This document shows, one piece after another, positions 4,414 to 60,292 of a stretch of 64,000 nucleotides of DNA. How positions within the stretch are numbered: the first letter of the stretch is position 1; each line of letters opens with the position of its first letter. The DNA is from Lingula anatina (taxonomy: Eukaryota > Animalia > Brachiopoda). Made by a program: the position numbers and the translations under genes. The stretch is from positions 2,643,721 through 2,707,720 of the forward strand of contig CM120648.1 of NCBI GenBank assembly GCA_051362555.1, read 5' to 3'. The notes under the pieces are model-generated. The model had not been told where the DNA came from. It saw only the letters and a list, made by a program, of their open reading frames with translations, and ran no database searches.

Positions 4414-4542
4414 GATTCCTTTCTAGGTCTTCAGGACCCTTAAGGATTTGGGGCCTTTTTCCTGTAGGACCCTATACGAAATTTCTATAAGGGGATACCT
4501 TTAACAATGCCATCTACCCCCCAAACACCACCATAATGAAGA

Positions 4543-4707
4543 TCTAGTATAGCCTTCATCATCACATGATCTCCTAACTCTCCCTGTTATCTAACCCTCA
4601 TTAACTGTGTTGATATCACTGAGTTCTAGTATAACTAGTATAACATCATCATATGATCTCCTAACTCTCCCTGTCATCTAACCCTCATTAACTCTGTTGA
4701 TATCAAG
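4543..4707. repeat. Tandem duplication, unit about 89 bp
   Basis: CATCATCA(C/T)ATGATCTCCTAACTCTCCCTGT(T/C)ATCTAACCCTCATTAACT(G/C)TGTTGATATCA occurs twice. Confidence 0.85.
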
Positions 4708-7700
4708 GCAGATCAATAGCAGGTATTGATCTGTGGTGTCGGGCTTTCCGTGGGTGTGACTTCTAAATGAACTCCGCATTTCTCCCCAAGAGTTTTAGTG
4801 AGTAGTAGCTAGGTCACTGACATTTATCGTGAAATGCCCCTAATAGGACCTTATTATGACAGAGTGTTGTTTTGAGACTGGAAGACTGAATTTTGGCGGC
4901 TATCCTTACATTAGTTCTTAATGGGAATTGAGCACCTTGGTGGAGGTCTGTGTGCAATGAGTGCCTTGCAATATTTATTTATTCACTATATATATACCCA
5001 ATATATATTTTTAATCAATATCATTATAACTACTTATAGTGCAGTGCAGTTAAAAAATTTGTAAGTTCACAATATATTGTAAGCATGTTTGTCTTTGTTT
5101 TTTTTATTATATTTACTCACTGACTGTACCTCAAAGTTTGAGGTTATTACAAATTATTTCATCCATAATCTACCATCTTTGGAACTCTCTGTATTATTAT
5201 TATTATTAGTAGTAGTAGTAGTAGTATCTATTTTATTACCAAAATGAAGATAGTCCTTGGGGACATAAAATACTTCTGCTCAGAAAATTCAACCACCATA
5301 AGCAATATAATTCATACGTAGATATGTGTGCTGTTTTGTTAGCTACTGCTGGTGCATAAGCTACATGAATATTCTGCAATAGTTCTGGGGGTATTTGAAG
5401 GCAAAGATTTACAGTTTATTTCCTTTCCAGGAATTTCAAAAGAGTCACGTCAGGTCAGTGAGTGTAAATTCTACTTAAATATTATTATATACAGGTTAAA
5501 TGACAGGAAACTGCTTATTTAATAAATGTCATAACTTGACATGATTTTAATTCTAGAACTACTGTCCTTGTTCAGCACTTGAGCTTCGTATTGGTGTAAA
5601 ATATTGTGATCTGTGAACAACTGGTATGAACGCATCTGTTATTAATTCATTCAGGCTCGACTTCCTGTGACATCTATTAGATAAAAATAACACAAGTGTT
5701 GCCCACTTTAAATGGAACAAAATCATACCTTTTTTAAATAGTGTTCACCTTTTACTTATCCATCCAATTGAATTGCTGCCAGTATATTTTAATTAATTTT
5801 TTTAAAGTCAGTAATAGTTCTACTGAATAAAAATAGGAAACAGATCCTCTATAACTACTGACTGTGATGTTATGTCTCTTACTGGAACCTGTACTTGTTC
5901 TTGTATGCAGTAATTACTTGAAATTTTCAATGGGGAACATTGTGAATTTTACAGATGTTTTTTTTTTTTTAATCATTATTTCTAATAATAAGAACATTAC
6001 TATTGAGTGGTAGCAACAAAAATTAAAGCAGACCACTCAATAGTTCTATTCCATCCAGTAAAAGCACAAAAATGCTATATAAAATTATGTACTAGTACCT
6101 GAAATTAATTTATCTGACCATTTTTGCCCATCTTAAAAGTTATTTTTGTATTTTACCAACAGGAAATGCCTGATGCTAGGTCCCAGTCAATATCAAATTA
6201 TTTTATAAAATATTTCTAAAAGCTGATTTTAGTATTTTACTAATAGTTTCGGAGTATAAAAGCAGTAGGACACCTTCAGCTCTGGAAATATAGTATTCTG
6301 GCTAATGCTGGGCAGAAAAGATCAGTTTTGATAAATCATTAATCTTTAAATCTGCACCCTGAGAGCCCAAGTTCTCATAAGAATTTATTCTGCTTGCTAA
6401 TTTCTGCCTTGACTGTTGGTCAATCGATATGTGAAGTAATTTTTCTGATAAAGCTTCAGAAACACCGCAACACAGAACTTCACATAACATATTCTACAAC
6501 TGAGTATTATCTTAACTAGCGACCATGCAATTAAACGTGGGCTGAATTCACAAGTCCCCCCCCATCCTTTAATGTAACTTTTTTATTACTCCTTTTTCAA
6601 TTCACTTTCTCACTCTGCTAGGTGGGGAAAGGAGGAGGGGGCAGCAACTTTATTGATCTAAATATGACCCGACATGTTTTTGATTGTGTGTCAAACAAAC
6701 AGCTTGGGGAGATACTGAAGAAATATTGATCTTGCATATGACCCTCGTAGACTTCAGTCCCGGTTTTGAAAGTTGGAAAGAAAACAAGGACTGGGAAGTG
6801 AACCCAAGAAATATTTTCATAACTTAAATCGTTTATTTTTCTACAATTAACCTGTATTTGCAAAGTCCCCAGCATACAATGTACTTCACAAACAGTTCAA
6901 CAAGAGAGATCAATATTTCCCTCTGGCTCTCCCCTAATAATCAAGGTGTCAGACAATTAAAAGGCTATGGCCATGAGGAGATCAATAGAGTATTGATCCC
7001 CGGGTGTGGAGATGACATCTGGCTATGGTGTCAATGGGAACTTAAGCCCTGAGAAGCCACAAGCTGGATTCACGAGGTCAGATCCAGGGGGGGGGGGGGA
7101 GGGGGGGGGAGGAAGCCATCTTCTGGGTCTTCTGAAAGATGGTTATAATTTTTAAGTTAATATGATGGACGACGTATAATTATTTTCTGTTAGAAGAGGG
7201 TCAAAAATGGAGGATGGATTAACATAGGATAATTTGGAAAACTGTCTGAAAATATCCTGCATCTGCCCCTGTGGCTGAAACTTTTATTCAAAAAATCATG
7301 GAGAATAAAAACTGGTTATGTCACTTTTTTTTTTATTGCCCTATTGGTGTTAAGTTAAGGTATATATAATGTTGCATCAAATTAAATGCAGATGAATACT
7401 GGCTGTTAAAAGGGTATGCAGTATACCCAATGCATTTCAATATGTAATTAAGATTTCACTACACATAGCAAGCCTGTCTGGTCGCATGGGACTTCCATCA
7501 ATTACAATAAGTGGGTGGGACAACAGAGAGTTTAGACTGTAAATCATCATCCTGCCTGCAGAAAACACTAGGAACTGAACTAGAGTGTCACATATAGACT
7601 AGAAATACACCGTACAATGGGAGAACTATGCTAGTCTGTCATATCAGGCTACCATATCCAAGTACTGCATAATCTGTCACATCTTAACAAGAAATGCGCC

Positions 7701-13568: not shown

Positions 13569-15305
13569 ATGCGTGTGAAATCGATATTCCGCCGTATTCC
13601 GCCAGGAGTTCGTTACCTTGTGCGGATCCTGGCCGTGTCTGTCCTGTTCATCACCTTACTGGCCTTGTTTTCTCATAGTATGGGGGGAGAGGGTAAGTAT
13701 GGGGGGATTTGAGTGCTTTAAGGTAAAGATGGCTTTATTTATTTATTTTTTGGCGTGAATTGGCATATTCTAGTAGGCCTACTACAATGTTAATCTGGAA
13801 CATACATGTATACGTGACTTAATCCTACTATGAACGTGACCCCTGTTTCCATCCTTGCATATCACTTTAATTACCACTATCTAACAACTTGTCCTTTTCC
13901 TCCACTCAAAACGCTGTTAAGTCAAGCCTCTTCGTGATTTGATTTTGGATTTCCTTTGATTCGAACCAAAGTCCTTGCCATTTCCCCAGATTACCCCATG
14001 ATCAGTTACTGCATATCTTCTTTAAGTCTGCTGTTTTATTACAACTACTGCAAGTTAAATGCACTAGGCAAACATCTTAGGTCAATTTCAATTTAAAACT
14101 TTGACGGCCATTCTATAGCAAAATACTCTAATTTTGCTTACAAAGAAATAACCAAGAGCAAACCTAAAAATTTTCGTATATATTTCCTCATTATGGAAAA
14201 GACTTCTTGACGTAGGACATATTTCCTTATTATGTTTTCAGACGAGATAGCCCAAGGAGCGGCCGCTAACGCACGCCGGGTCCGGAGGATGGAGAAAGTG
14301 TGCGAGATGCAAGGTTTGGCTGAAGGAACATCCAAGCTAATGTCAAAGCTGCGAGAACCGGAAGGATTGATTTTGCCCATCCAGTTCGTAGTCGACGACG
14401 TCTTTAACGTTCTTTACTGCCAAATCCCTAAGGCTGGCTCCACAAATGTGAAGCGAACTTTTCTTTTAGCGCATGCGCTGAAGAACGATACCGAGGCAGC
14501 CAAGAAGGACGTCATCGACCTTCAGGACATGAGCCCTGATCAAACCTGGAAGAACACCAAAGTAGAGTTTTCCAGGCTCACAGAGAAAACGGACGAGGAA
14601 GCAGCGAGAATATTAAGCAACTACACCCGTATGATCATAGCCAGGCATCCGTTTGAGCGGCTCCTGTCGTTTTATAAAATGTTGTTTGTTGCCAGTGGTT
14701 ACGAAGATTTCAGCATGAAGGTCAACACTGTGAACCTGTATCGTCAGATTTGCGAGAGGTACGGATGGGAACCACCCCCTAAAAATATCAAAATGATCAC
14801 GGAGCCGATCAAACTACCTTTCCCGACCTTCGTACAGTACGTCATCGATCACGACATCCGCACGCGCAGGGGGGAGTGGCAAATCAACCACAATTTGGAC
14901 GCTCATTGGCTGCCCATGTGGAGGCAGTGCTGGCCTTGCACCGCCCACTTTGACGTGATTGGTCAAGCCGAGACCATGGACCGCGACATCGCTTTTATCA
15001 CACGAAAACTTGGCGTCAAGCAGCGCATAGTTTACCCTGATGATTTAAAAAGGCGCACCGCCAGTGAGGTTCCTATCTGGTTTTCACAGAACATTACTTG
15101 CAATCAACTCGAAGCCTTAAATGAACTTTATTCTCTAGATTTCGATTTATTTGGATACGCTCCATTTGATATTAAATCCGTGGACTGTATATGGGAAGAC
15201 CCGGCAGCCATACGGAAGAGGGCGGCCTCGATACCAATTCAAAATCCGGCAGGAGCGCCGGCAGCACCTGCTGCTGGCGCGGCGCCAAATCCACCTGCGG
15301 CATAG
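13569..15305 (+). CDS. Carbohydrate sulfotransferase, CHST8-14/HNK-1ST (Sulfotransfer_2) family, CHST11-like type II Golgi protein, about 395 aa
   Basis: Two coding exons. 13569-13692 encodes MRVKSIFRRIPPGVRYLVRILAVSVLFITLLALFSH (basic tail plus TM anchor; donor G|gtaagt, phase 1). 14242-15305 has the 5'-PSB motif CQIPKAGSTNVKR, the 3'-PB motif RHPFERLLSFY, and HWLP, CWPC..FDVIG..ET and LYSLDFDLFGY. Orthology to a specific CHST is not resolved. Confidence 0.9.
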
Positions 15306-18300
15306 TGGCGCCGCCTAGACTGAATCTGTGACGTAACTATCTGTGCTTTTAAGCTGTTCTCAATAGTGCGGTCTCAAAACTTTGTCCAGTTTCTTGTTCT
15401 TTTTCCCTTCCCCGTTTCACTTGTTTGCATATTGTCTAGCGCACAAGGGTACGTTCTTAGACAATGCAAAAACTTGTGACGCCACACACTCCTTAGCACA
15501 CAATGTCAATTTGTGCTAGAAATCTGACGTCACGTAGCTCTCTTCCAGATAAATCTTCCAGCTCCTTTTTGCAGTCAAAATTGGGATTCGTCACGTGTTT
15601 TTATTCAATGTGTATACGTCGAGGGATAGTTTGAGTAGAAAAAAATTGTGAATAAATGTAAAACCAGTGTAGTATTTAACAAATTTTTACGGCCTACTGA
15701 GAAGTGGAAATAATAAGTGGAAATAATGTATGGATATCAGAAGACGTTTTACAATAAAATTATTGAAATAGAGTGGCGTTTGATTTGAAGATAAAGATCG
15801 GCATTGACTGTTATTTTTCACCTTTGAGTGTGGATTGCCAATGGAAGTAAGAGAAACATGACAGTTGACATCCGATGGAAGATGTGCGATGGATTAATTC
15901 CCGGACAGATGCTTTTAACAGGAGTAGATGTCCCCATGTTAATGCCAATGTCTCTGCACATACACAATAGAAAAAGTATCTTTAAAAATACAAAAGAGGT
16001 AAACATTTTATTTTCTTTTATTTCCCAAATCCCAGTCAGCTTGGACCACAGAAAGTACTCCTGCATTTAAATTTCCTAATCAGTTGACTGCTTTTGCTGC
16101 AAGAAATGACACTAAATCTTCACATATCTCAAAATGAATAATTATCTTCTGGAGTGCAAACAGGAAGATTGTAGAGTACAAAGTGGAACTTTTTATAGCT
16201 GTACAAGTCCTGCCATTCTCACCAGTGTTACAGTCAGTTTAGGTCTGCAAATCCATAAATTCTTACAAAACTGGACTATCAAACTATAACAATATCAGTC
16301 AATGCTGAAGAATGGTAGTACAGGGACTACTTTAATATTGCATGTTACAGAAAACAAATTGACTAGTAATAACATATAACTACCAGTGGTGTCTATACTG
16401 AGTTTAGAACAGGCACAAACTGGATTTTTTTATCCTTTTTTAAAATACAAAATTTCAGGTCTACGAACATATTTTTCAAGATGTATCACTCATCCAAAAT
16501 GTGGTTTCCAGCAAAACACTAACTTCTCTTACGTAACATTAATTTTTTTAGTAATAAAAATTAAACCATTTTGGGGTAATTTTATCCTGGTATTGGTACA
16601 GCTGTAATCCCACAAAACTACCAATGTCTACTGATACAACAATATACTATTTCATAAAAACCAAAGTATTATGAAAAATGGACACTTCTACCCATGTTAG
16701 AACTTCTGTACATAGCACCAAAATTCCCTGTTGCCTTTCATCATTCAAAACTGTCAAACACACCAGAGTTTCTGTGATAATACTTAAAGAAAGTTTCATG
16801 TTCTACAGGTTAGCATGCCTTCTTTACCAATTCTCTGATACAAAAGGTATTCTATTTCTATGGTACTATTCCAAATGAGACTTTCTTTTAGCATTAAGAT
16901 ATAAAATTCGTTTACAGTGGACACTTTCAAAACACATGAAAATCATTTTCTGCTAATTTAAGTTGATCACGATGTACCAAAAGAAAAGCATTTTACTTGT
17001 TCATATTGGCAAACAATAACCACTTGATCCTGCTTACTAACAGCGCAACATAGATGAAATAAATTATGTGAAAGTTTTCCCATGAAAGAGGGGAGAATGT
17101 CTATAAAATATATAAATCACTTCAACTTGTACATTAACCTATCTGTGGGCATTTCCTGTGACCTAATTTAAATGAAATGATTTCATTTGAAGGTTATTAA
17201 CAATTTCATACATAATGGGATACTGAAATGTGACTGAAAACATTGCCTTTCAAATTTTTACTAAATACAAGGAGCACTGTATTCAGGATATGTTCTAAGA
17301 GCTACAAAGACAAAGAAAAACAAGTAGATTATCTTGCATAGAATTATCATTAATTAAAAGCCCAGTTAGGCTAGATTTTGATTATATAAATGCCCAGACA
17401 AAGAATGAGATTCTAAACTTAACCGTCCTCAAATAATTTACAGTTATTCGTGAAATTATTCTAGATTTGTATAACAGTTCTATGAGAAGTTTCTACAAAA
17501 TAAAGATTAAAAACTTTTGACACTAAAAATGAGCTACCATAAAAAAAGTTCACTTCTTAGGAATCTTCACTTTCTGCTTTTTCCCCCTCTTTGAGTATTA
17601 ATATATCAATATTTTCCCCAGGAAAATAGAAATTAATTGCATAGCAAAGTAATATATAATAAATGCACTTTAAAAATTTTTTCTCGTACACTTATAATCC
17701 AGACTTTTATCACTGAAATATGGAGCTTTTTTGACATAAAATGTAACACTGCTGTTTGTCAGTTGAATCCTGTAATGTTTAACTCTTATTGCTAACCATG
17801 ACACAGCCAAACAAAGCTGATTGTATTTGGATGTGAAGTAGATTGCGTTAGATGTGATAAGGTGCTCAATGTAGCAATGTGTTAGTTGTGATAATGTGTT
17901 GCAATGTGTTAGTTGTGACACTATTTATGGACACAGATTTCTCACTAACTTAAAAAATGTTGTTAATGATACACTTAATCAACAAATACCTTATTCTAGA
18001 TTATTTGTAAATCTGTCAATAACATCCAGTAAAGTCTCACTTTTTCTGTCCAAAAATTCAAAATATTACATTCACCACAAAATACTGGAAAGAATTGCAT
18101 CTGTAATGTTTTCTTTTCTAACAAAATTAGAGTTAAAACAGTACATTCTATCATCTAATTGAACACTGTAGGTGTATCAAGAGATGTCATTGTGGCCTGA
18201 TTAAAATCTTTGAGACAAACTGCAGTGTTTCCATGGCAACTTGGAATATAACAAACAACACATTAAGTAGCACATCAGAAGAATTGCATCACACTTGGAC

Positions 18301-19308
18301 GTTTCTATTCCCATTTTCTGACAGCAGTAACATCAAATGTTAGCAGAGAAACATAAAGCATAAGACCATAAAAATTGTATATACATATCATGTGGTTATA
18401 TGAAGCAGCAAATGTGCATAAATATTAAAGCAGATCCCAGTAAAGAATAGAAATAATAAACCACCACCACCAGACTCTGTGTATGTAGATAGTTAACACA
18501 GAGTGAAGTACTGAACACAGTACTATATCACATTATATCATAGTGTACACTGGCATGGAGGTAAAAAGGTATGATATCAATAGACAAATGGTAACTGAAT
18601 GTGTTATTTGTTGTTAACATCTTGACAAAACATGAGTCTTGAAGGGATGATTTCCAAACATTTTGTGCAATGAAGTCAGTCAAGTACAAAAGTTTTTTTT
18701 CTTTTTTTTTTGGTTGATGGACAGTTCTTAAAGTTACAAATATTCTATTGGTATCATAATTAAGGTTGTGATTCATTAGATTCTATCTGAATTGAGTTAG
18801 TTCTGTTCCATGCCAATGCAGATATAATATATAGAAGCACACATAGTGTGTGTAAATATGACACACATGGTGTGTAGTTTTATCTCTCGTCCACTGACGT
18901 AGGTGGAGGTGGGTTAGAAGACACAGGGCAGTGTAAGAAAAGTGAGATCAAGATTGAAGCATCTTTGATTAAACCAAAAAGAAAACAAAAATCCCCAATG
19001 AGATAATTATTTCTCAGTGTGTCTTTTGGATTATACAGAAAAGTGAGATTGTGTTAAACTGAAAAAGCAGTTCTAACTTAGTACTCATTATTTTCACAAT
19101 AAATAAAAAATAAATAAATAAATAAAATAAAATAAAATAAAATAAAATAAAATAAAATAAAAAAATTAAATACAAAAATGGGTCCCAGTACTGAAAGAAG
19201 CTAAAATCTGTTAGATGACTCAATCTGGGTCCTAGGATTATTTTGATTCACTTAATGCCGATGATGCAATTCTTCCGACCTGCCCATTACCCAACATGGG
19301 ACAAGGCT

Positions 19309-19464
19309 CTAAGGGTCGACAAATGAAATCATGATATATCGTGTTCCGCTGGTCGTTGTCAGGCCTTCGTGGTAATGAGTTAGACGGCCAGGGTGTAATA
19401 TAGCCCATCCTCGTTTTGTGTCCGATACTGCACAATTTTGTCGTATAAAATTGCTGCCTCCACC
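19309..19464 (-). CDS. PLOD: PLOD terminal exon 20b (distal): [51 protein letters not shown]
   Basis: Acceptor ccttctctaattcag, 156 nt ending in TAG, phase 0; 38/51 aa identical to 20a. Confidence 0.92.
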
Positions 19465-22400
19465 CTGAATTAGAGAAGGAGGGAGACAGTTGGGTTAAAT
19501 TGCTTCAATTGTGTTTGTTGTGCTGTGCTTGGATTGTGTTCTCTCATCCCACCTAGCACAATATTGCTCTAACTGACACTGTATAAGACCTTAATACTAT
19601 TTATAACCAGTGTTTTGGGCTGTCTTACAAATAGCAATTCTTCAGTCTTCCAGGATATTTCACTGAAATACAATGTGCTGAGCTCTCACACCTAACACAA
19701 TATAATATAACTGCAATCTCAAGGCACAACTAACACAATCAAAGTGGAATATGACACCCTTCTGTACATCTCGCACAAGATGCTGTAAAAAATATCAAGA
19801 TGTTGTCATATCTAAAACGGGTACACTTTCCCTCCAATAGCACCTTTCGATAGCACGCTTGTAAAACATAACCTACACAGATTGCATCTATTTACTGTTT
19901 TGGAATGGTATCATCTCTCTTGTGTATGCCATGGAAACTGCTGTACAATAGTTACATAGAAAATAGAAATATCTATATCATAAATACATACTGTATATAT
20001 ACTAGCATGGATAATTAAATACACATATGCTTCCAAAGCAATTGTGGCATATTGCTGCAAATAGTGAAGAAATCTCAAGTGCACATTTCAAAGTTCTCCG
20101 GCGTAGTTGGGGTCTCTTCTCGTCTTGAAGTTGGATTTCTCTGGCACGGAGTATTTGAAATCCTACAACTTGACAGATCTCTTTTGTGTCTTTTCTACCA
20201 ATAACTCTTGATTTAGAAGCTGATTGCCTTGCACAATAAAATATCTACATCAGCAGTAGCATTTACTAGAAGTTTGTACACCACAAAGAAAAAAGACTGT
20301 GAGAAAACCTGTCACCCATACAGAAAACACTGTATTATCAATATATATACTTTACTATAAATATTCCATTTTGCTATAAATAATGATATGAAATATAAAT
20401 CAAGGCATTCAGCTATTTTACCAAGTCCTAATCATTTTCCTAGAAGCCACCCTGACTATGAAATGTGAAAGCTACCCTGAATATGAATTATCTAGAGCCA
20501 GTATTAAGGATCCACAAAAGAGATCATGATATATCTTGTTCCCTTGGTAACAGTAAGTCCCTCGTGTAGGTGGGTCAGACGTCCTGGGCTGATGAGGCCC
20601 CAGCCGCGCTTCGTTTGTGTCACACTGCAGTTCTGGCGTACAAATCTTACACCGCCTCCCTGTAGAAACAACTGCCTTCAGTCATTGTGAACTATAGTGG
20701 CTGTCTTGCCTGACACAATTGTCACAATCAACACAATGTCTCTCATTTTTCCCATGTGCAACACCTGTCACACCTAACACAATTGACACAACCAAAACGA
20801 AGTCACACCTAACACACTTCCACTGTTCAAGACTTAAAACAAATGTTATGCAGCACTTTTAACAACCTCATTTGACTATGGCATTTTAAATCTAACATCA
20901 GACTCATGGCACAATTGCTAAGAAAAACTTTATAGAAAATCCATCCAACCATCTCTCACACACGCGCACACGTGCGCACACACACGCACACACACACACA
21001 CACACACACCAGGATAAGGCATTGCCACACTTCATGCCAAATACTTTACACTGCCATCTTTACCACAAGCAGCTAGTCAGATAGTCTTGGTGCCAGCTCC
21101 TTGGCACCTTAAGCTGTCCTCTCCAGCCACTAGACTAAATCAACACATTGGGAAGGATGGGAAATGCCAATTCATTAGTACAAAATACCGATAAATAAAG
21201 CTGAAATTAACAAAGCACTTTTGGGATAAATACATGGCACTGAAATAAAATGGATAAGGTTATAAGCTGCAGCAAAGGGAAAGCACTTTAACTGGCATGC
21301 TGGAGCAATCAAGCATGATATATCAAGCAAATTGCACTGAAAATATGATTAAGGAAAAAAATCAATATGTAAATAAAATCAATGAAATATGCATATATAT
21401 AAGATACTGCATATTATATTTACTAGATACTACAAAACAGACAATGACATACTACTTAAAGTACATAACAGTTTTATCATTCATCAAAGTGGTACACTGT
21501 AATACCACAATTTTACATGAAAGCCATATAGGAAGTAAAGCAGCTTTAAATACCGCATCAGCTAGTCAACAGGTAAACTTTTGCTGAGCAACACATGTAC
21601 GAACTTAGTGCTTTTTAGCTTACTCCCTAAGTTCACATCTGATTCAATGACCAAGTTTTGTGCCCAGTATATCACCTGTTGCAATTACATCAGCTAAGCA
21701 ATAATTAATAACAGTTTTATGTGCTGTTCACTTTATATAAGCAATAAAGATTGGCCGGGAATTCTAAGCTAGCAAAAACAACTCCCATATAACCACATTA
21801 GTTCACATCCTGTTCCATACTTCCTGTTAACTACTTCCTTGTTACCTACTTACCTACTTTTACCTACTTACTATCATCAAAATCTTGCCATATGTTGTGA
21901 GGAAAAGTTTTATGAACATATCACAGCCATACCTATGAAACTGGCAATGCACATGTAACACACCGTCACACCTAACACACTATCACATCTACCACATTGT
22001 CACAACTACCACACTGTCACATCTAACACACTGTCACATCTACCGAACTCCAGCACATACCTCATAATCAACACCAGGCGTGTTTAGAGCTATATTGATG
22101 GTATATGTTGAAGAATCATGATGTGGACGTAGACTTGGTTGTTCATCAGGCCTGTAGCGGACCACAAAGTTCATGACTGCATGTGGAGGCTGAAAATGTA
22201 GAATATTCCATAATATTACAATTTCTACCAAGTCTTGTTATCTTTACATACAGTCTTACATTTCTAATTTTACGGGGAATAAGACTTGTAAACAGAACAT
22301 GGCATTTTTGAATCGGTCACATTAAAAGCTCTTAGATTAAATACTGAAAGTGTACTATGACATACAAAAGCAACACATTTTGAAACATTTTCTACGAAAA

Positions 22401-24229
22401 AAGGCAGTAAGAAATCAGATTTGTAAAATATAGTTATTTGTATTTAAAATTCGGATATATCTATTAACATTTTTAACTAAAACAATTTGTATTGAAAGTT
22501 GGACATATATTTGTGCTTATTTTCAAAGAATTCACCAAACTTTACTCACGTCATGGTAATATCCTACAAACACCTTCTGCTGCACCGGCTGTACGTACAC
22601 ACGTAGGAAATGAAGCCAGTGTCGCTCAAAGCCCACTTGGTTCATGTGGATATCACGTGTTGGTACGTTCTCGTAACCTCCATCTAGACGAGAATCCTAA
22701 AAATACAACAGCACAACATTAACAAGGTCCCAATGCTGACTGAAAACATAATATCATATGTAACACTGTTTACTATTACAGTAACTTAGTGAACCTGTAA
22801 ATATAAAAACATTTCTGTGCTCAAAATAATATCACTTTTATACTGAGCATATAATACTTCATTATAATTCATCACTTTACAGTTGTACGTCGACAGGAAA
22901 CTCGAACTGCATTGTGGGAGGGGGAAAGAGCGTGAACTCATGGCGCGAAGGCTTTTGAACACAAAATAATGACTACCTGCTGTGTTTCAAGTTGCAGAAA
23001 TGATAGAAGGTATCGAGAAAGGTAATTTCCCGCTAATTTTACAATCATGGACCAGAGTGTGTGATCGTCGAGGTTATTCCCCATTATTCGTATACTCGCT
23101 GTTTTTGTTTTGCTCTATTTTTTCCCACAATGCAATTCTCACGCATGCGCGCAGCGATTTTGTAAGTATCTGTAAAGTGGTGAATGGGCATATAATACTT
23201 TTTGAATGTCACATGCTATCACACCCAACACAATGAATTCCATTCTGTCACACCTATCACAATGACATTATAATACTGTTTGAATGCCACGCACCTCATT
23301 CTTGCCATTGGACCACTGGCCAAACCCCTCCATCTCTTCTATCAGGTGTTGACAGAATGTTTCTGATAATACTGGGAACCAGTACACGTCAGGGCACGGC
23401 TGAAATAGCAGCACAATTTGTATAGCATACATAACATGACTTGATGTGGAAGGCTAGGATAGCAATTTCTTTCTTTTTTTTTTATACATATTTTTTTAAT
23501 TGAGAAGTCCACATTTTTTTTAATCTTAGATTTTAATATATAGATGTTCACTGGATGAAAAAGAAAATTCTCATCCCAGTTTTTACCATGTCCACTTCAT
23601 ATTCCTCCATCAGGACTCGGCTGTAGTTTTCATGGATGTATTTTTTCTCCCAGTCCTAGAGATATAGAAAATATAGACTAAATATTAACATGGAATAAAT
23701 CTGGATATGAATGAAAAATTTTTCAAGTAACAATCATGGCTAAGAAGTGCTTAAATTTAGTAACACTTCAAATAGCCCAGCCTCCTTTTGTAAACAAGCA
23801 ATACATTTTAAAATTTCATGCCTATGAATTCCATCTTGTCACACCTAACACAATGAAACATTCACTCTGTCACACCTACCACACTAGTACACTCACCATT
23901 GGGTTGCTGAACATCTCGTACATATCTGGGTGTGTACGCGTTGTGTCATAGTTATCACCGTCTATAAGATGGCCGTAGTTCAACTGGTTACTCACATACA
24001 TAAACATGTTCTAAAATAAATAAACAAAGACTTATCAGCATTTCATTATCTCACTGTTGAAGAGATTTTTTAGAGTTTTAACTTGAGTAATATAATACAA
24101 AACATAGTTGTTTCATTCTGAACTGAAGTGGACCAACATTTCTGACTTGTATCTTACTCCGACCCAATATCCTTGGTTATATTGCCAGACCACCGCCTGC
24201 TCTCTCTCTCTTCCTGCCTTATCCTTAAA

Positions 24230-24289
<60 letters not shown>

Positions 24290-27200
24290 GCCTACCTTGT
24301 CTCTCATGGTCTTACAGATGGCCATATCGTGGTCTAGGTGGTCATTCCTGTATCCTCCCTGCAGCTGTTTTATCTTGTTTCCTTGGATCAGGTAGACATA
24401 GCGTACATAGGGGACATTCCACAAGCCTCTGGAAATACAACATACTTATTCAATCAAATTTCAGAAATTAACAATAAATATAATACACAACCCCCACCGA
24501 CACATGCTCATTGACACACACATATTCACTAATCAAGCACTTTCAAGCACCTATTCTGTTAATGCTATGCTTTTACAGATATATTTTCTTTTAATAAATT
24601 TTTAATTCTATTACATTATAAATAATGTTTTTATTGTTACCTTATCCACCATATAACATACCTTTTGTTGGGGGGGGGGGGGGGGGGGGTGAGGGATAAA
24701 ATAACAAATTTTCTCTAAATTACATAATTTCACAATATCCATGGACTCACAACCAGAGTAACCACTAACACTTACATCCTGTGGCTGTTCACAATGTCCA
24801 GGTAATCTTCTGACCGGGCGTAGAAACCGTTACTGCTGAGTGACCCCCAGAAGTTAGACCACAGCTTGCCTGGCCGCGTAAACATGGGGGCGATGACTGA
24901 CCTGGAGGGTCAAAGTTCAAGGTCATAAGGCAAAGAATATCTACTTCTTTTGTTTGAAACAACTTGGTATAATTATACTGACATTTAGTTTCTCTTTTCA
25001 ATATTTATTGCTTTTTTCTTTTTATAATAAAAAAAATCACAACATTATACTGAAACAAAAGGCAACCTGAAAAAAAAGCCTTGGAAAAGCTGACCTTATT
25101 ATTTAAAATACCAAGTTGATTTGTAATCAATTGAAAATAGCCAAAATCGTTTTGTTGTCCTCTATAATGTGTGCAAGAAGAGCCTACCTGTTCTGTTCAA
25201 TGAGCAGTTGTAATGTCTTAGAGTTGTCAAGATGAGCCTCTGGCTCCAGAAACAAGTAATACTGGCAGTTCTTTTTCAAACAATGATCACTGGAACATGA
25301 AAGAAAGAAATAATGACACTGTCCAGAAGAAATACAATAAAAGTGTGAAGATATTGAAGTTGCAATGGAAATTCAGTGACAAACAATTCAGCCAGTTTAA
25401 TCCTGATCATGTGCGAATAGGTCCCTCCCCTCAAGTTTATATTAAAAAAATTAATACTTTGTTTTTATGAAAGGGAGCAAAAGACAACAAAACCACTTCC
25501 CATTCATTTTTTTCCAAGTGGTCACATTTTGACCTAATTTTCTTAGCACTGGAGGAAATTTTTCTCAAATCCACTCACATGCCCATATTCCTGGCATCAT
25601 ATGCATTGACCCCTCTCTCGGGTGGAACAGAAGTGAATGAGTTGTATTTCTTCTCATACTTGATCATAAAGTTTTTCACATCTTTGGCATGGAAGTTAGC
25701 CTAGGAAAAGAAGTTAAATACATATTTCATTTTAAAAAATATCCTTTCTCTCAGGAGCTTGCAATCATTCTGTTAAAAAGATGGATGTTCTCCAGAATAG
25801 TAGGTTGTTCTGATTTAGACCTGTATACTGAAAACATTTGGAAAGAATCCAAACTTCTCAATCTGATTTCATCCTTATTATCATTGAACTAAAAACTCAC
25901 ATTGTTGTATACAAACACATCCATTTTCTTCTTAGGGTATTGTTGCCCAGCAAGCTTCTCAAAGAACTCGGCTATAAAAGGCACGGGCTGGTCAATGAAG
26001 ACACCAACAAATACCGTGGGGTAATCCTGCTCCTGGGGGGATTAAATATATTGTTAATAATCTATTATAAAAAAATTGATACTCTTTAATTGTTTTTTGT
26101 ACAATTAAGGCTTCACCATTTTAAAATTCTAGCTCATTTCCAAGTTAAAATAAATTTCAAATGATATTATTACAACTACACATATATAAGAGAAATTATG
26201 AGACATTCATTTGAACTGCAATATATTTACAAATACAATGTTCTTCAAAAATGTTATGCTATGTATGCTTGTGAAACTTGCAAGAGAAGAAAAACTTTTC
26301 TGTGCTTTAATCCGCTAATAGTAAGTACTTTTTTGTCAGTTCCTTCCTGAATAGAGAATGGAATGGTTACTGATTGGAAAACCTGAGAATCTATACACAT
26401 TTGACAGCTATATCTAGGAGAAACCCAGCTTCTGCAGATTGGGCCTGTCTTTCCAAGAAGACAGAACACCAGCAAGTGCTGCCACCTAGTATTACCTCCA
26501 CCTCCTGAAGATTGATTTTGTCCTCCCCACAAGCAAGACAGCCCTGAGTGGGGGTCCAAGAATCTGCCAAATAGTTCCCCAACGTGTTGAACTGGGGCTG
26601 AGAGGAGGAACAAGAAAATACTAAAGAGTACAAGACAAGAGCAACTCAAGACAAACATATCCAACTGCCAGCCTAACCTGAAACCATCGTCATCAACAGG
26701 AAAATGAAAGGAAGCTAAAAGTAAAAAATCAGACCACACCCACGTGAAGAGAACAATTGCAACAAGAAAAAGGTTTTGGACTGCAAACTAAGACAAGCAA
26801 TGGTTAAGATAGATACAACCATATAGAAAATTATTGCAGAGAAATCATATTCCATTATTAGTGTTATTGAACTAAATGAGCAAAAAAGAAATCCCAAGAA
26901 GAAAAAGAAATGAGAAAAACAGAGAAAAAATAACAGAGGCAAAAATCACCATGTGGCTCTATTGTTAAAAGAAAGTAAAGGGCATGCAAGATCCAGGAAA
27001 AAGCATATAAAAGCAATTGTGCAGCTACGAAAGTCTGCTTGGCGTTTACAGGTGATAGAATTTCAAGCAGCCACACGCACACAAGTTGGGCTAACGCGAG
27101 GCACTAGGTGTTAAAAACATGCTGTTATCACCATGAACTACACCCTATACAGCAGCATTTCTACCTTGAATGTGCCTAGATTGATATAATCTTCTTTACA

Positions 27201-30135
27201 TGCAAGACAGCCATGGGTGGGTGTCCAGGAGTCGGCCAGGTAGTTCCCCAGCCCATCCAACCTGTGCTGAAATCAAAGGTCAAGCAAGGTTAAGGTCAGT
27301 CCATGTAGGTCAAGGTCAAAACTCCCATCAGTCTTTGCGCTTTGCTGCCAAAATGGAGGTGAGGTATGTCATGCACAGTCCTTGAAGTTAACTTTTTTTC
27401 ATTAAAAATGGGAATTCACTCCCCTAATCAAAAGCAGTAAGTATTACAGGGCATGCACAAATTTCCCTGAAAATAACAACATCATTGTGGTATATTGTGT
27501 CACTTTTGTCTTGAAAATACGGTAAAACTGCTGACATTGAAGGGTTAAACAAAATATGAAAAAGTTTTAAATATAATAATAAGTATTATCAATTACACCT
27601 TGCAGTTCATTTTTTGTGGAATTTCTAATGAACTAATTTAAATACGACTGAAAATTATTCTTTTTATGAGGTATAAATTTAATTCAAAGATCAAATGAAA
27701 TTGTTTAAACACTCCAGCATATAGTTCACTTAAGATAATTTATCATTAATAGGACTACTTAACAGCTTTAACACTTCTTAATCCAAGTAAATCTCACCTT
27801 AATGGGTCCATTGCCGTGAACCACAAGTGGCGTTGTACCTGTCTTCACATTGTACAGGTAACTGTTGGCACCTTTGAACTTGAGCGTCACTTCATCTACA
27901 GACAGGAACAAACAGTTTAATATTCTGTTGTACATAAGTGTCTACACTGACAGCTGGCTCGATTCCTTTTATCACACTTAAATTGTTCATATATACCTAT
28001 TGTGACTATTCTACATTTTCATGTCTTTTTAATTTAATTTAATTTTAATCAAATTAAGTTCATAATGTGATACATACTAAGTGAAACATGACAGACAAAA
28101 TGTGTTTTAGTTTCTTCCACTAAATAAATTCCCATGCTTTGTCTTATAATTACCCAGAGCTCCATTTAAATTCTGGAAAATCTCTCCTCTGGTGTCTAAC
28201 TTGATATTCCATTTTTTCTATATTAAAATAATTAATTTACAAGATAAATTCACTTATTAATTCATAATATTGGCTTCAGTTAATCAATAACTAAATTGAT
28301 AAATAATAACAAATTACACAAGTCTCATTTAATTTGATCTATAGACAACACAAAAGCAGCATTGCATAGGTCTGATGTTTTCATTGGATTATTCTGATGT
28401 CACCTTTAACAGAAATAAAGCACATTTTTAACAAGTCCCTAGTCAATCCTATCCCATCTCACCCTGAGGTTTTCATCCAAGAAGATGTTTGTATAAACCA
28501 GCTGGTCATCATCCTTGTCTCCAACTTCATTGTGGGTGATGATCTCGTAAATGTCAGGGGCGTAACCTATATATCCTAGAAATAAAACAGTATTATGTCA
28601 CAAATACTAGAAATACCAGTAATCCTAGAAATATGACACCAACTGTAAAATTTCAAGGGTACTCGTAATACTGATCAATGATGATATATAAATCAAAGCT
28701 TGTTATTCGTAATTAAGAGAATAAAATTATCCCATTATACAAAAACATGTATAAGGAATATGAGAGGCTCTTTGTACTAGAAAACTCCATGTAATTTCCA
28801 GGTTATTTAGTCAGAAATGTTGTAGAAAAGTTACCTCCTGAGTTCAAAAATCTTTTCTCGTTCATCTTCACTTCTGGGTATTTGTCCTGGAAGAAGAACA
28901 TAACATTAGGACCTTTTCTCTGATAAATTCCCAGCAATCACAGATTACCTACATTTGATGTTTAGTATATTAATTTGATAACTGCACTTTTGGATGCTTC
29001 CTAGGGGCACACTCCCAGTGAAACTTTTGATTTACATAGATCGATCCAACTTCATGGGGACTCTTGCTGAATGCAGTCAGATTAACTGAATGACACACCT
29101 TGAGCAGCAATGGGGTGAAAAATATTTGTGCATGTTTGGTTGCACTCAAAATGAAGTGAAACAGCTTCTAGAAGTAAGGCACACAGGACAGTTAATCACA
29201 CCTTAGCTCACAAAGAGAATAGTGAATGGGCGAGCTTCTGAAGGAGAGAGGATATTTAGGTTATCTGATTTCATTCAGCAAGAGTCCCTGCAGAGTTGGA
29301 TCGATCTACATGGAATAATATTTTCATTGGGAACCGTCCCTAAATCATCATGAGCCCAATGGCTGGCATAGTGTGTGGGTGATAGGGACCATTCCCACAG
29401 ATTTTTGGATTGATCCATCTCCCTGGGGAGTCTCACTAAATTGCTATCAACTTAAACAACTTAAATGTCCGTCACATCCATCATCTTTACCCCCTAGCTG
29501 ATTCGGGAGTTTCACCGATCCAGATGGATCAATCTAGGCATGGGAACCCAGTCACAGACGCAATGTGTTATCTACATCATGTAATACAATCAATCAAGGT
29601 TCTGCATTAAGTCCTTACCATAAGAGAGGCGTCCGGCCAGCAGAAACCCTCCGCAGAAAATACCACTCTGGCATTGAACTTTTTAAACATTTTCAAGATT
29701 TCCTGAGCTCCACCAGTAAAAATCACGTCATAGCTGTGAAGAGAAAAATGACATGAATCTTCAGTTATAATTACTTAACTGCAGGCCATTTTATAGGGTA
29801 TGCCACGCAAGTGTAAAACCAGAAATCAAAAATTATTTTTTTTTATAAAAGCATGATCACCATTCACATAAGGTTCAGAAAAATAAAACAATTACTAAAA
29901 GCTGAATAAGTGGCCTAATTTTTCTCAATGCAAGTTATTATAAAATCATCAACACCAAATCATAGTATCCATACCTGTCAGTAAACATAAGCACCAGGTC
30001 CTTCTTATCCTTGTATTTCTTCAAGCCTTCTTTCAGGAGGTTGATCTTGTACCCACCACCAACGGACACTGCCATGTCTCCGCCTCTCCACTCCTTCCCC
30101 ATACCTAACACCTAGAGGCATCATCATCATCATTA

Positions 30136-42629: not shown

Positions 42630-60292
<17,663 letters not shown>

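Follow-up and report, generated by a model that had tools for sequence, protein, structure and literature searches.

Old, alternatively spliced duplicate last exons in the lysyl hydroxylase gene of the brachiopod Lingula anatina

The PLOD locus and its duplicated exons

The window, a 64,000-nucleotide stretch of the Lingula anatina genome, contains the PLOD (lysyl hydroxylase) gene of this animal. Mapping of the RefSeq isoforms resolves 20 exons on the minus strand, from about 38700 to 19309. Two exon pairs are duplicated, 9a/9b and 20a/20b, and the features referred to below are listed here in the direction of transcription.

27165..27266, minus strand: exon 9a of a duplicated, mutually exclusive pair, with junction reads in RNA runs X2, X3 and X8
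26496..26597, minus strand: exon 9b, the alternative copy, found in RefSeq isoform X3; RNA depth is limited to this copy in run X5, where 9a has none
22061..22189, minus strand: exon 19, common to both forms, with the HxD iron ligands, E659/P661 and the donor for 20a and 20b
20660..20686, minus strand: acceptor region of 20a, pyrimidine-poor (11/22), the lowest among 12 acceptors scored
20504..20659, minus strand: exon 20a, proximal alternative last exon, 51 residues and TAA, RefSeq isoform X2; Val at LH3 position 691, Ser at 711, Leu at 718, NCS sequon
19465..20503, minus strand: intron in the 20b form and apparently 3' UTR in the 20a form, with RNA reads up to the 20b acceptor
19465..19491, minus strand: acceptor region of 20b, pyrimidine-rich (19/22), the highest among the 12 acceptors scored
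19309..19464, minus strand: exon 20b, distal alternative last exon, 51 residues and TAG, RefSeq isoforms X1 and X3; Ser at LH3 position 691, His at 711, Tyr at 718, without the sequon
16007..19308, minus strand: long distal 3' UTR, likely common to both forms; AATAAA starts at 16022 and 16012 only, and the poly(A) tail itself is not seen

Both last-exon forms are already in the automatic annotation: the RefSeq cluster holds three isoforms of 737 residues each, of which X2 ends in 20a (a protein matching that exon at 100%) and X1 and X3 end in 20b, isoform X3 additionally carrying the second copy of exon 9. The 9a/9b pair encodes the helix and CxxC linker that joins the two N-terminal domains, glycosyltransferase and accessory, when mapped onto LH3 as described in PMC6082870. 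Another Lingula contig carries a partial PLOD model of 295 residues. Within the window, RNA depth on both strands at 22701-23100, in the region of intron 17, reaches 19 in run X5 and exceeds that of adjoining exons, possibly reflecting a repeat or a separate transcript. Downstream of the PLOD 3' end, a GC-richer, long coding-like stretch at about 14280-15340 (minus strand) has a short upstream exon at about 13600-13690; judged by eye from its motifs, it may be a carbohydrate sulfotransferase-like gene.

Exons 20a and 20b are each 156 nt long, follow an AG acceptor in equal phase and end in their own stop codon. Residue identity is 38 of 51 and base identity 100 of 156 (64%). The 38 shared residues and the stop give 39 codons of equal meaning, 27 of which are written differently in the two copies. 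At fourfold degenerate sites 17 of 22 differ, and the silent divergence is saturated (pS 0.86) at a dN of 0.23. Saturated silent sites combined with a conserved protein indicate an old duplication with constraint on both copies. Of the read-level variants, the five listed within 20a and 20b change no residue. The final 12 residues are the same in both, and the residues aligned to LH3 Arg714, Leu715, His717, His719 and Arg729 are retained in both. The first-pass annotation had described duplicated terminal exons that swap the hydroxylase C-terminus, with many silent differences at 38/51 identity, with the iron-ligand His and the 2-oxoglutarate-binding Arg in each (the equivalents of His719 and Arg729), and with NCS and SPG..THLH in 20a against NCA and HPG..THYH in 20b. 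On these points the description is accurate, and so are its coordinates. The pair is real, old and expressed, and is a fresh case of a known mechanism; our literature search, in the library it covered, returned no account of Lingula PLOD or of any PLOD gene with duplicated last exons.

Transcripts and the choice of last exon

Junction reads were counted in seven of the nine RNA runs with the species label, run X2 having been mapped twice and counted once. The two junctions singled out in the first-pass annotation are both present, with 27 reads for exon 19 to 20a (22061>20659) and 63 for exon 19 to 20b (22061>19464). Per run, the 20a:20b counts are 8:6 (X1), 6:25 (X2), 11:21 (X3), 2:1 (X4), 0:2 (X5), 0:3 (X7) and 0:5 (X8). 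The ratio is heterogeneous among runs (chi-square 13.1, permutation p = 0.03), on small counts and among runs that bear no tissue label and are probably different individuals. X1 differs from X2 (Fisher p = 0.017, uncorrected), and X1 and X3 alone show no significant difference (p = 0.20).

These counts also bear on whether one copy could be an assembly artefact, such as a second haplotype, or a decaying pseudo-exon. The RNA runs contain many polymorphisms relative to the window, and X5, X7 and X8 have no 20a junction reads, as such a reading would expect. However, 64% nucleotide identity with saturated silent sites far exceeds allelic distance, both junctions occur together in runs X1-X4, and the listed exon variants are silent. 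Junction reads to both exons refute the artefact reading, to which we assign a negligible probability.

The first-pass annotation gave each exon its own 3' UTR, which the data do not support as the main form. No AATAAA or ATTAAA lies between 19465 and 20503, and coverage reads through; the sole AATAAA hexamers are the two at 16022 and 16012, and RNA depth reaches the 15901-16300 bin. At position 19488, which is 24 nt before the 20b acceptor, unspliced reads number 4 in X1, 9-10 in X2 and 10 in X3, compared with 20a junction counts of 8, 6 and 11, and the intron 19 bins at 20801-21800 have a depth of 0-1.3. Given that the unspliced reads roughly equal the 20a junction counts and that intron 19 is nearly empty, read-through of the 20a form is the simplest reading: 20a transcripts appear to continue through 20b as UTR to a common 3' end near 16000. 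None of the short reads or read pairs connects the 20a junction with the sequence ahead of 20b. The depth in run X1 drops from 19 at 20573 to 4-6 beyond, and weak hexamers occur between 20a and 20b (AGTAAA three times, TATAAA and AATACA), so some transcripts may end at a poly(A) site between the two exons.

With read-through of 20a transcripts, the choice is likely one between competing acceptors, and the pyrimidine content of 11/22 for 20a and 19/22 for 20b fits 20b as the default. The exon 19 donor would thus join one of two last exons, under competition between a weak proximal and a strong distal acceptor, to give two full-length lysyl hydroxylases. Where 20a is used, 20b would be read through as 3' UTR to the common end, adding about 1.2 kb of UTR. 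A 17-bp repeat by both acceptors was considered as a specific splicing element and rejected, as it belongs to a dispersed minisatellite with 34 matches in the window. This minisatellite occurs in both orientations, with an array at 45806-46040 and further copies at 17845-17919 on the plus strand, and copies at 21965-22029, 20767-20815 and 23218-23882 on the minus strand; the RNA reads at 21958-22042 that are antisense or have loose ends are probably derived from copies of it elsewhere.

Human capping protein beta (PMC3228551) has the same arrangement, with two homologous, equal-frame last coding exons after one common donor, and as in Lingula the transcript carries one or the other as coding sequence. 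That paper attributes cases of this kind to the presence of several poly(A) sites, whereas the Lingula reads point to competing acceptors.

The C-terminal swap and its likeness to human lysyl hydroxylases

Folded with a 68-row alignment, the 20a form gives a model with a pLDDT of 91.5 (single-sequence folding of the Lingula form gives 34), a TM score of 0.90 to human LH3 at 51% identity, and the GT-AC-LH three-domain fold of PLOD. The iron triad HxD..H and the 2-oxoglutarate Arg (LH3 His667, Asp669, His719 and Arg729) are present in exon 19 and both last exons. Human LH3/PLOD3 (PDB 6FXR and relatives; PMC6082870) and LH1/PLOD1 have in common with Lingula this fold, the triad and Arg729, as well as the Leu715 dimer lock and E/P at the positions of the LH2 arginines. 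In LH3, Cys691 positions 2-oxoglutarate, His719 is an iron ligand, Arg729 anchors 2-oxoglutarate and Leu715 locks the dimer, according to PMC6082870.

Across 304 distinct PLOD last exons, Cys691 is kept in 265 and in neither Lingula copy: 20a has Val, and the Ser of 20b is the only one in the set. His711 is retained in 282 and is Ser in 20a. Vertebrate PLODs are separate genes in which Cys691 and His711 are kept, whereas the Lingula variants come from one gene and neither has Cys691. Other PLODs have Leu, Tyr or Phe at 718 and Val, Thr or Ala at 691, and with such variability the Lingula changes at these two positions may be nearly neutral. LH1 histidine-to-serine mutants were reportedly assayed in a 1996 paper, from which we draw nothing here. 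Co-variation of non-Cys691, non-His711 and Leu718 was dropped as a candidate signal: the rare states at these three positions co-occur strongly when simply counted, but not significantly in six phylogenetically independent pairs (sign test; 116 of 386 rows kept, comprising all 46 rare-state rows and 70 random others).

A predicted dimer of the 20a and 20b hydroxylase domains scores 0.62, against 0.01 for the best of three controls. Of solved pairs 51 of 78 pass the mark, as do 2 of 108 mismatched ones (39/65 and 2/126 in eukaryotes); contacts agree by at least 81% between runs, and the partner pLDDT is at least 83. Given that LH3 and L230 dimers are already solved, this pass shows likeness and not binding. 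The predicted interface includes Lingula 693 and 717 (LH3 694 and 718), both differing between 20a and 20b, and Lingula 711, which adjoins the Ser/His site. The proposal in the first-pass annotation that this segment contributes to dimerization agrees with PMC6082870 and with the predicted interface. It had also linked the segment to ER retention; lysyl hydroxylases are described in the literature as being without a canonical ER-retention signal. It had further set the Y/L and H/S differences next to the active site. Mapping puts position 718 in the predicted dimer interface, turned towards the partner subunit and not towards the iron.

The most far-reaching proposal was that 20a parallels the telopeptide hydroxylase LH2 and 20b parallels LH1 or LH3, and hence that an LH2-like isoform arose convergently by exon duplication. 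R680 and R682 determine LH2 telopeptide activity, which is lost when they are replaced by E and P as in LH1 (PMC8055892). By offset from the HxD aspartate, their equivalents fall in exon 19, common to both Lingula forms, as E659/P661; the same offsets give R/R in a bat PLOD2 fragment and R/S or R/A in fish PLOD2-type rows. On this main test the convergence proposal fails. Of the 13 last-exon differences between 20a and 20b, only Leu718 matches PLOD2 alone, where the PLOD2-type rows comprise one named PLOD2-like by its source and two assigned by grouping with that row, human LH2 not being among them. Exon 20a is identical to these three rows at 32-33 of 51 residues and to four PLOD1 rows at 32-34.

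Some likeness to LH2 (PMC8055892) does exist. Vertebrate PLOD2 does read THLHEG; 20a has Leu at LH3 718, as in fish PLOD2-type rows, and the NCS sequon; and Leu718 is absent from the compared PLOD1 and PLOD3-like rows (the label PLOD3-like being our own assignment). Leu718 falls within the predicted dimer interface, and collagen binds in the cleft of the dimer (PMC5802723). Telopeptide activity in Mimivirus L230 means that non-human routes may exist, and a tree joining 20a to PLOD2 is not rejected (p-AU 0.10). However, the known determinants are E/P in the common exon, and Leu718 is widespread, occurring in 34 of the 304 last exons, including those of flatworm, rotifer, ostracod and choanoflagellate. 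The sequon is common among PLODs: one of the N-x-S/T type at 697 is found in 262 of the 304, PLOD1 included, and its loss in 20b is the oddity. Exon 20a is equidistant from PLOD1, PLOD2 and PLOD3-like exons, and in the exon-level tree the vertebrate exons form a starred clade of their own. LH2 itself has R680/R682 and keeps His711 and Cys691, both absent from 20a, and its known splice variant is a cassette exon 13A in the accessory domain rather than a duplicated last exon. The likeness of 20b to LH3 stands, at 78.6 bits to human LH3 compared with 66.6 for 20a. Overall, a convergent LH2 telopeptide hydroxylase in 20a alongside an LH1/LH3-type enzyme in 20b is improbable, and the Lingula pair gives no evidence for convergent LH2, which would have been the surprise.

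Three lophotrochozoan proteins (P0290, P0315 and P0380) have Arg at both R680/R682 equivalents and, judged by these residues, would be better candidates than Lingula 20a for true LH2 convergence. Rotifer PLODs have Arg at the first telopeptide position together with Leu718.

Duplicated PLOD exons in other animals and what the pair may do

Last-exon duplicates occur in other PLOD genes as well. Lineus longissimus has alternative last exons with His711 in isoforms X1/X2 and Gln in X3/X4; its proteins (P0076 and P0125-P0127) derive from two independent exon pairs, exon 13 and the last exon, giving four 733-residue isoforms. A fused Darwinula model contains two last-exon copies, both with His711 and Leu718. 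We kept 80 of 138 genomic PLOD loci; in 17 of them an intron precedes the last exon and 1.5 kb or more of sequence is available downstream. One of these 17, animal locus L041, has two last exons after exon 19. They are 793 bp apart, and both have their own AG and stop:

4466-4621, plus strand: first last exon of L041, His711
5259-5414, plus strand: second last exon of L041, Phe711

An AATAAA/ATTAAA hexamer lies between them, at 5067. One copy is without His711 in three of the four last-exon pairs (Ser in Lingula, Gln in Lineus, Phe in L041), and the order differs, the non-His copy being first in Lingula and the His copy first in L041. Artemia isoforms X3 and X1 differ across exons 18-20 and were left out of the pair count. 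Among the isoforms listed for Mytilus, scallop, Haliotis, spider and shark there is no alternative last exon.

Exon trees of 51 columns do not distinguish a single from a repeated origin of the last-exon pairs. The p-AU is 0.43 and 0.41 for the Lingula pair as one clade, 0.66 for the Lineus pair, 0.58 for 20a with Lineus X3/X4 and P0034, and 0.26 for 20b with Lineus X1/X2. The lophotrochozoan protein P0034 has the Gly708-Ser711 stretch in common with 20a, and in a 48-row tree 20a groups with the exons of P0034, flatworm and choanoflagellate (99/89), a placement that carries a long-branch warning. Elsewhere in the gene, insect and crustacean models carry tandem copies of exon 18, and shark and fish PLOD1 carry tandem copies of exon 19. 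As in Lingula these are tandem duplications in the hydroxylase domain, but the exon-18 and penultimate-exon pairs are internal, mutually exclusive and carry the capping loop or the HxD strand, whereas the Lingula pair is the last exon. Flatworm P0002, P0134, P0136 and P0138 appear to be tandem whole-gene PLOD duplicates, fused in some models.

The two Lingula proteins could be nearly equivalent biochemically, either copy being sufficient and any effect acting through mRNA level or location by way of the extended 3' UTR of 20a transcripts. The two do not differ at any catalytic or core dimer residue, most substituted residues are found in other, single-exon PLODs, the 20a form has the extra UTR, and molluscs, spiders and sharks have no alternative last exon among their listed isoforms. 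However, purifying selection would not be expected to preserve a redundant copy for as long as silent sites take to saturate, and His711, kept in 282 of 304 exons, has been lost from one copy in three of four last-exon pairs. We regard near-equivalence as unlikely, albeit less so than LH2 convergence.

We favour, at a probability of roughly 0.68, two old tandem last exons that are alternatively spliced to give two hydroxylases likely differing in 2-oxoglutarate handling and dimer contact, both predicted to be of the helical-lysine type. Judging from the residues in exon 19, both forms would hydroxylate helical collagen lysines, as LH1 and LH3 do, and the 13 substitutions would tune the enzyme rather than redirect it. 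The tuned sites would be 691 in the 2-oxoglutarate pocket, 711, and the predicted dimer positions 694 and 718, and the likely function would be a fine tuning of pocket and dimer face. Because Arg714 and Leu715 are kept in both exons, both homodimers and a 20a/20b heterodimer would be possible.

More tentatively, and with the odds somewhat against it, the PLOD hydroxylase domain may be a hotspot of exon duplication in which last-exon duplication, either repeatedly or once early in spiralians, gives copies with and without His711. If so, the lysyl-hydroxylase pocket and dimer face would have an undescribed second state, switched by splicing and with mixed dimers possible, and animals with a single PLOD would obtain by splicing what vertebrates got from three genes. 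Invertebrates are treated as having one lysyl hydroxylase in PMC5802723 and PMC7619536; Lingula PLOD has up to four forms from its two duplicated exon pairs. Its last-exon pair is a natural swap experiment at LH3 positions 691, 711 and 718, which have been little studied in catalysis and dimerization, although the enzyme family is a drug target for both fibrosis and cancer.
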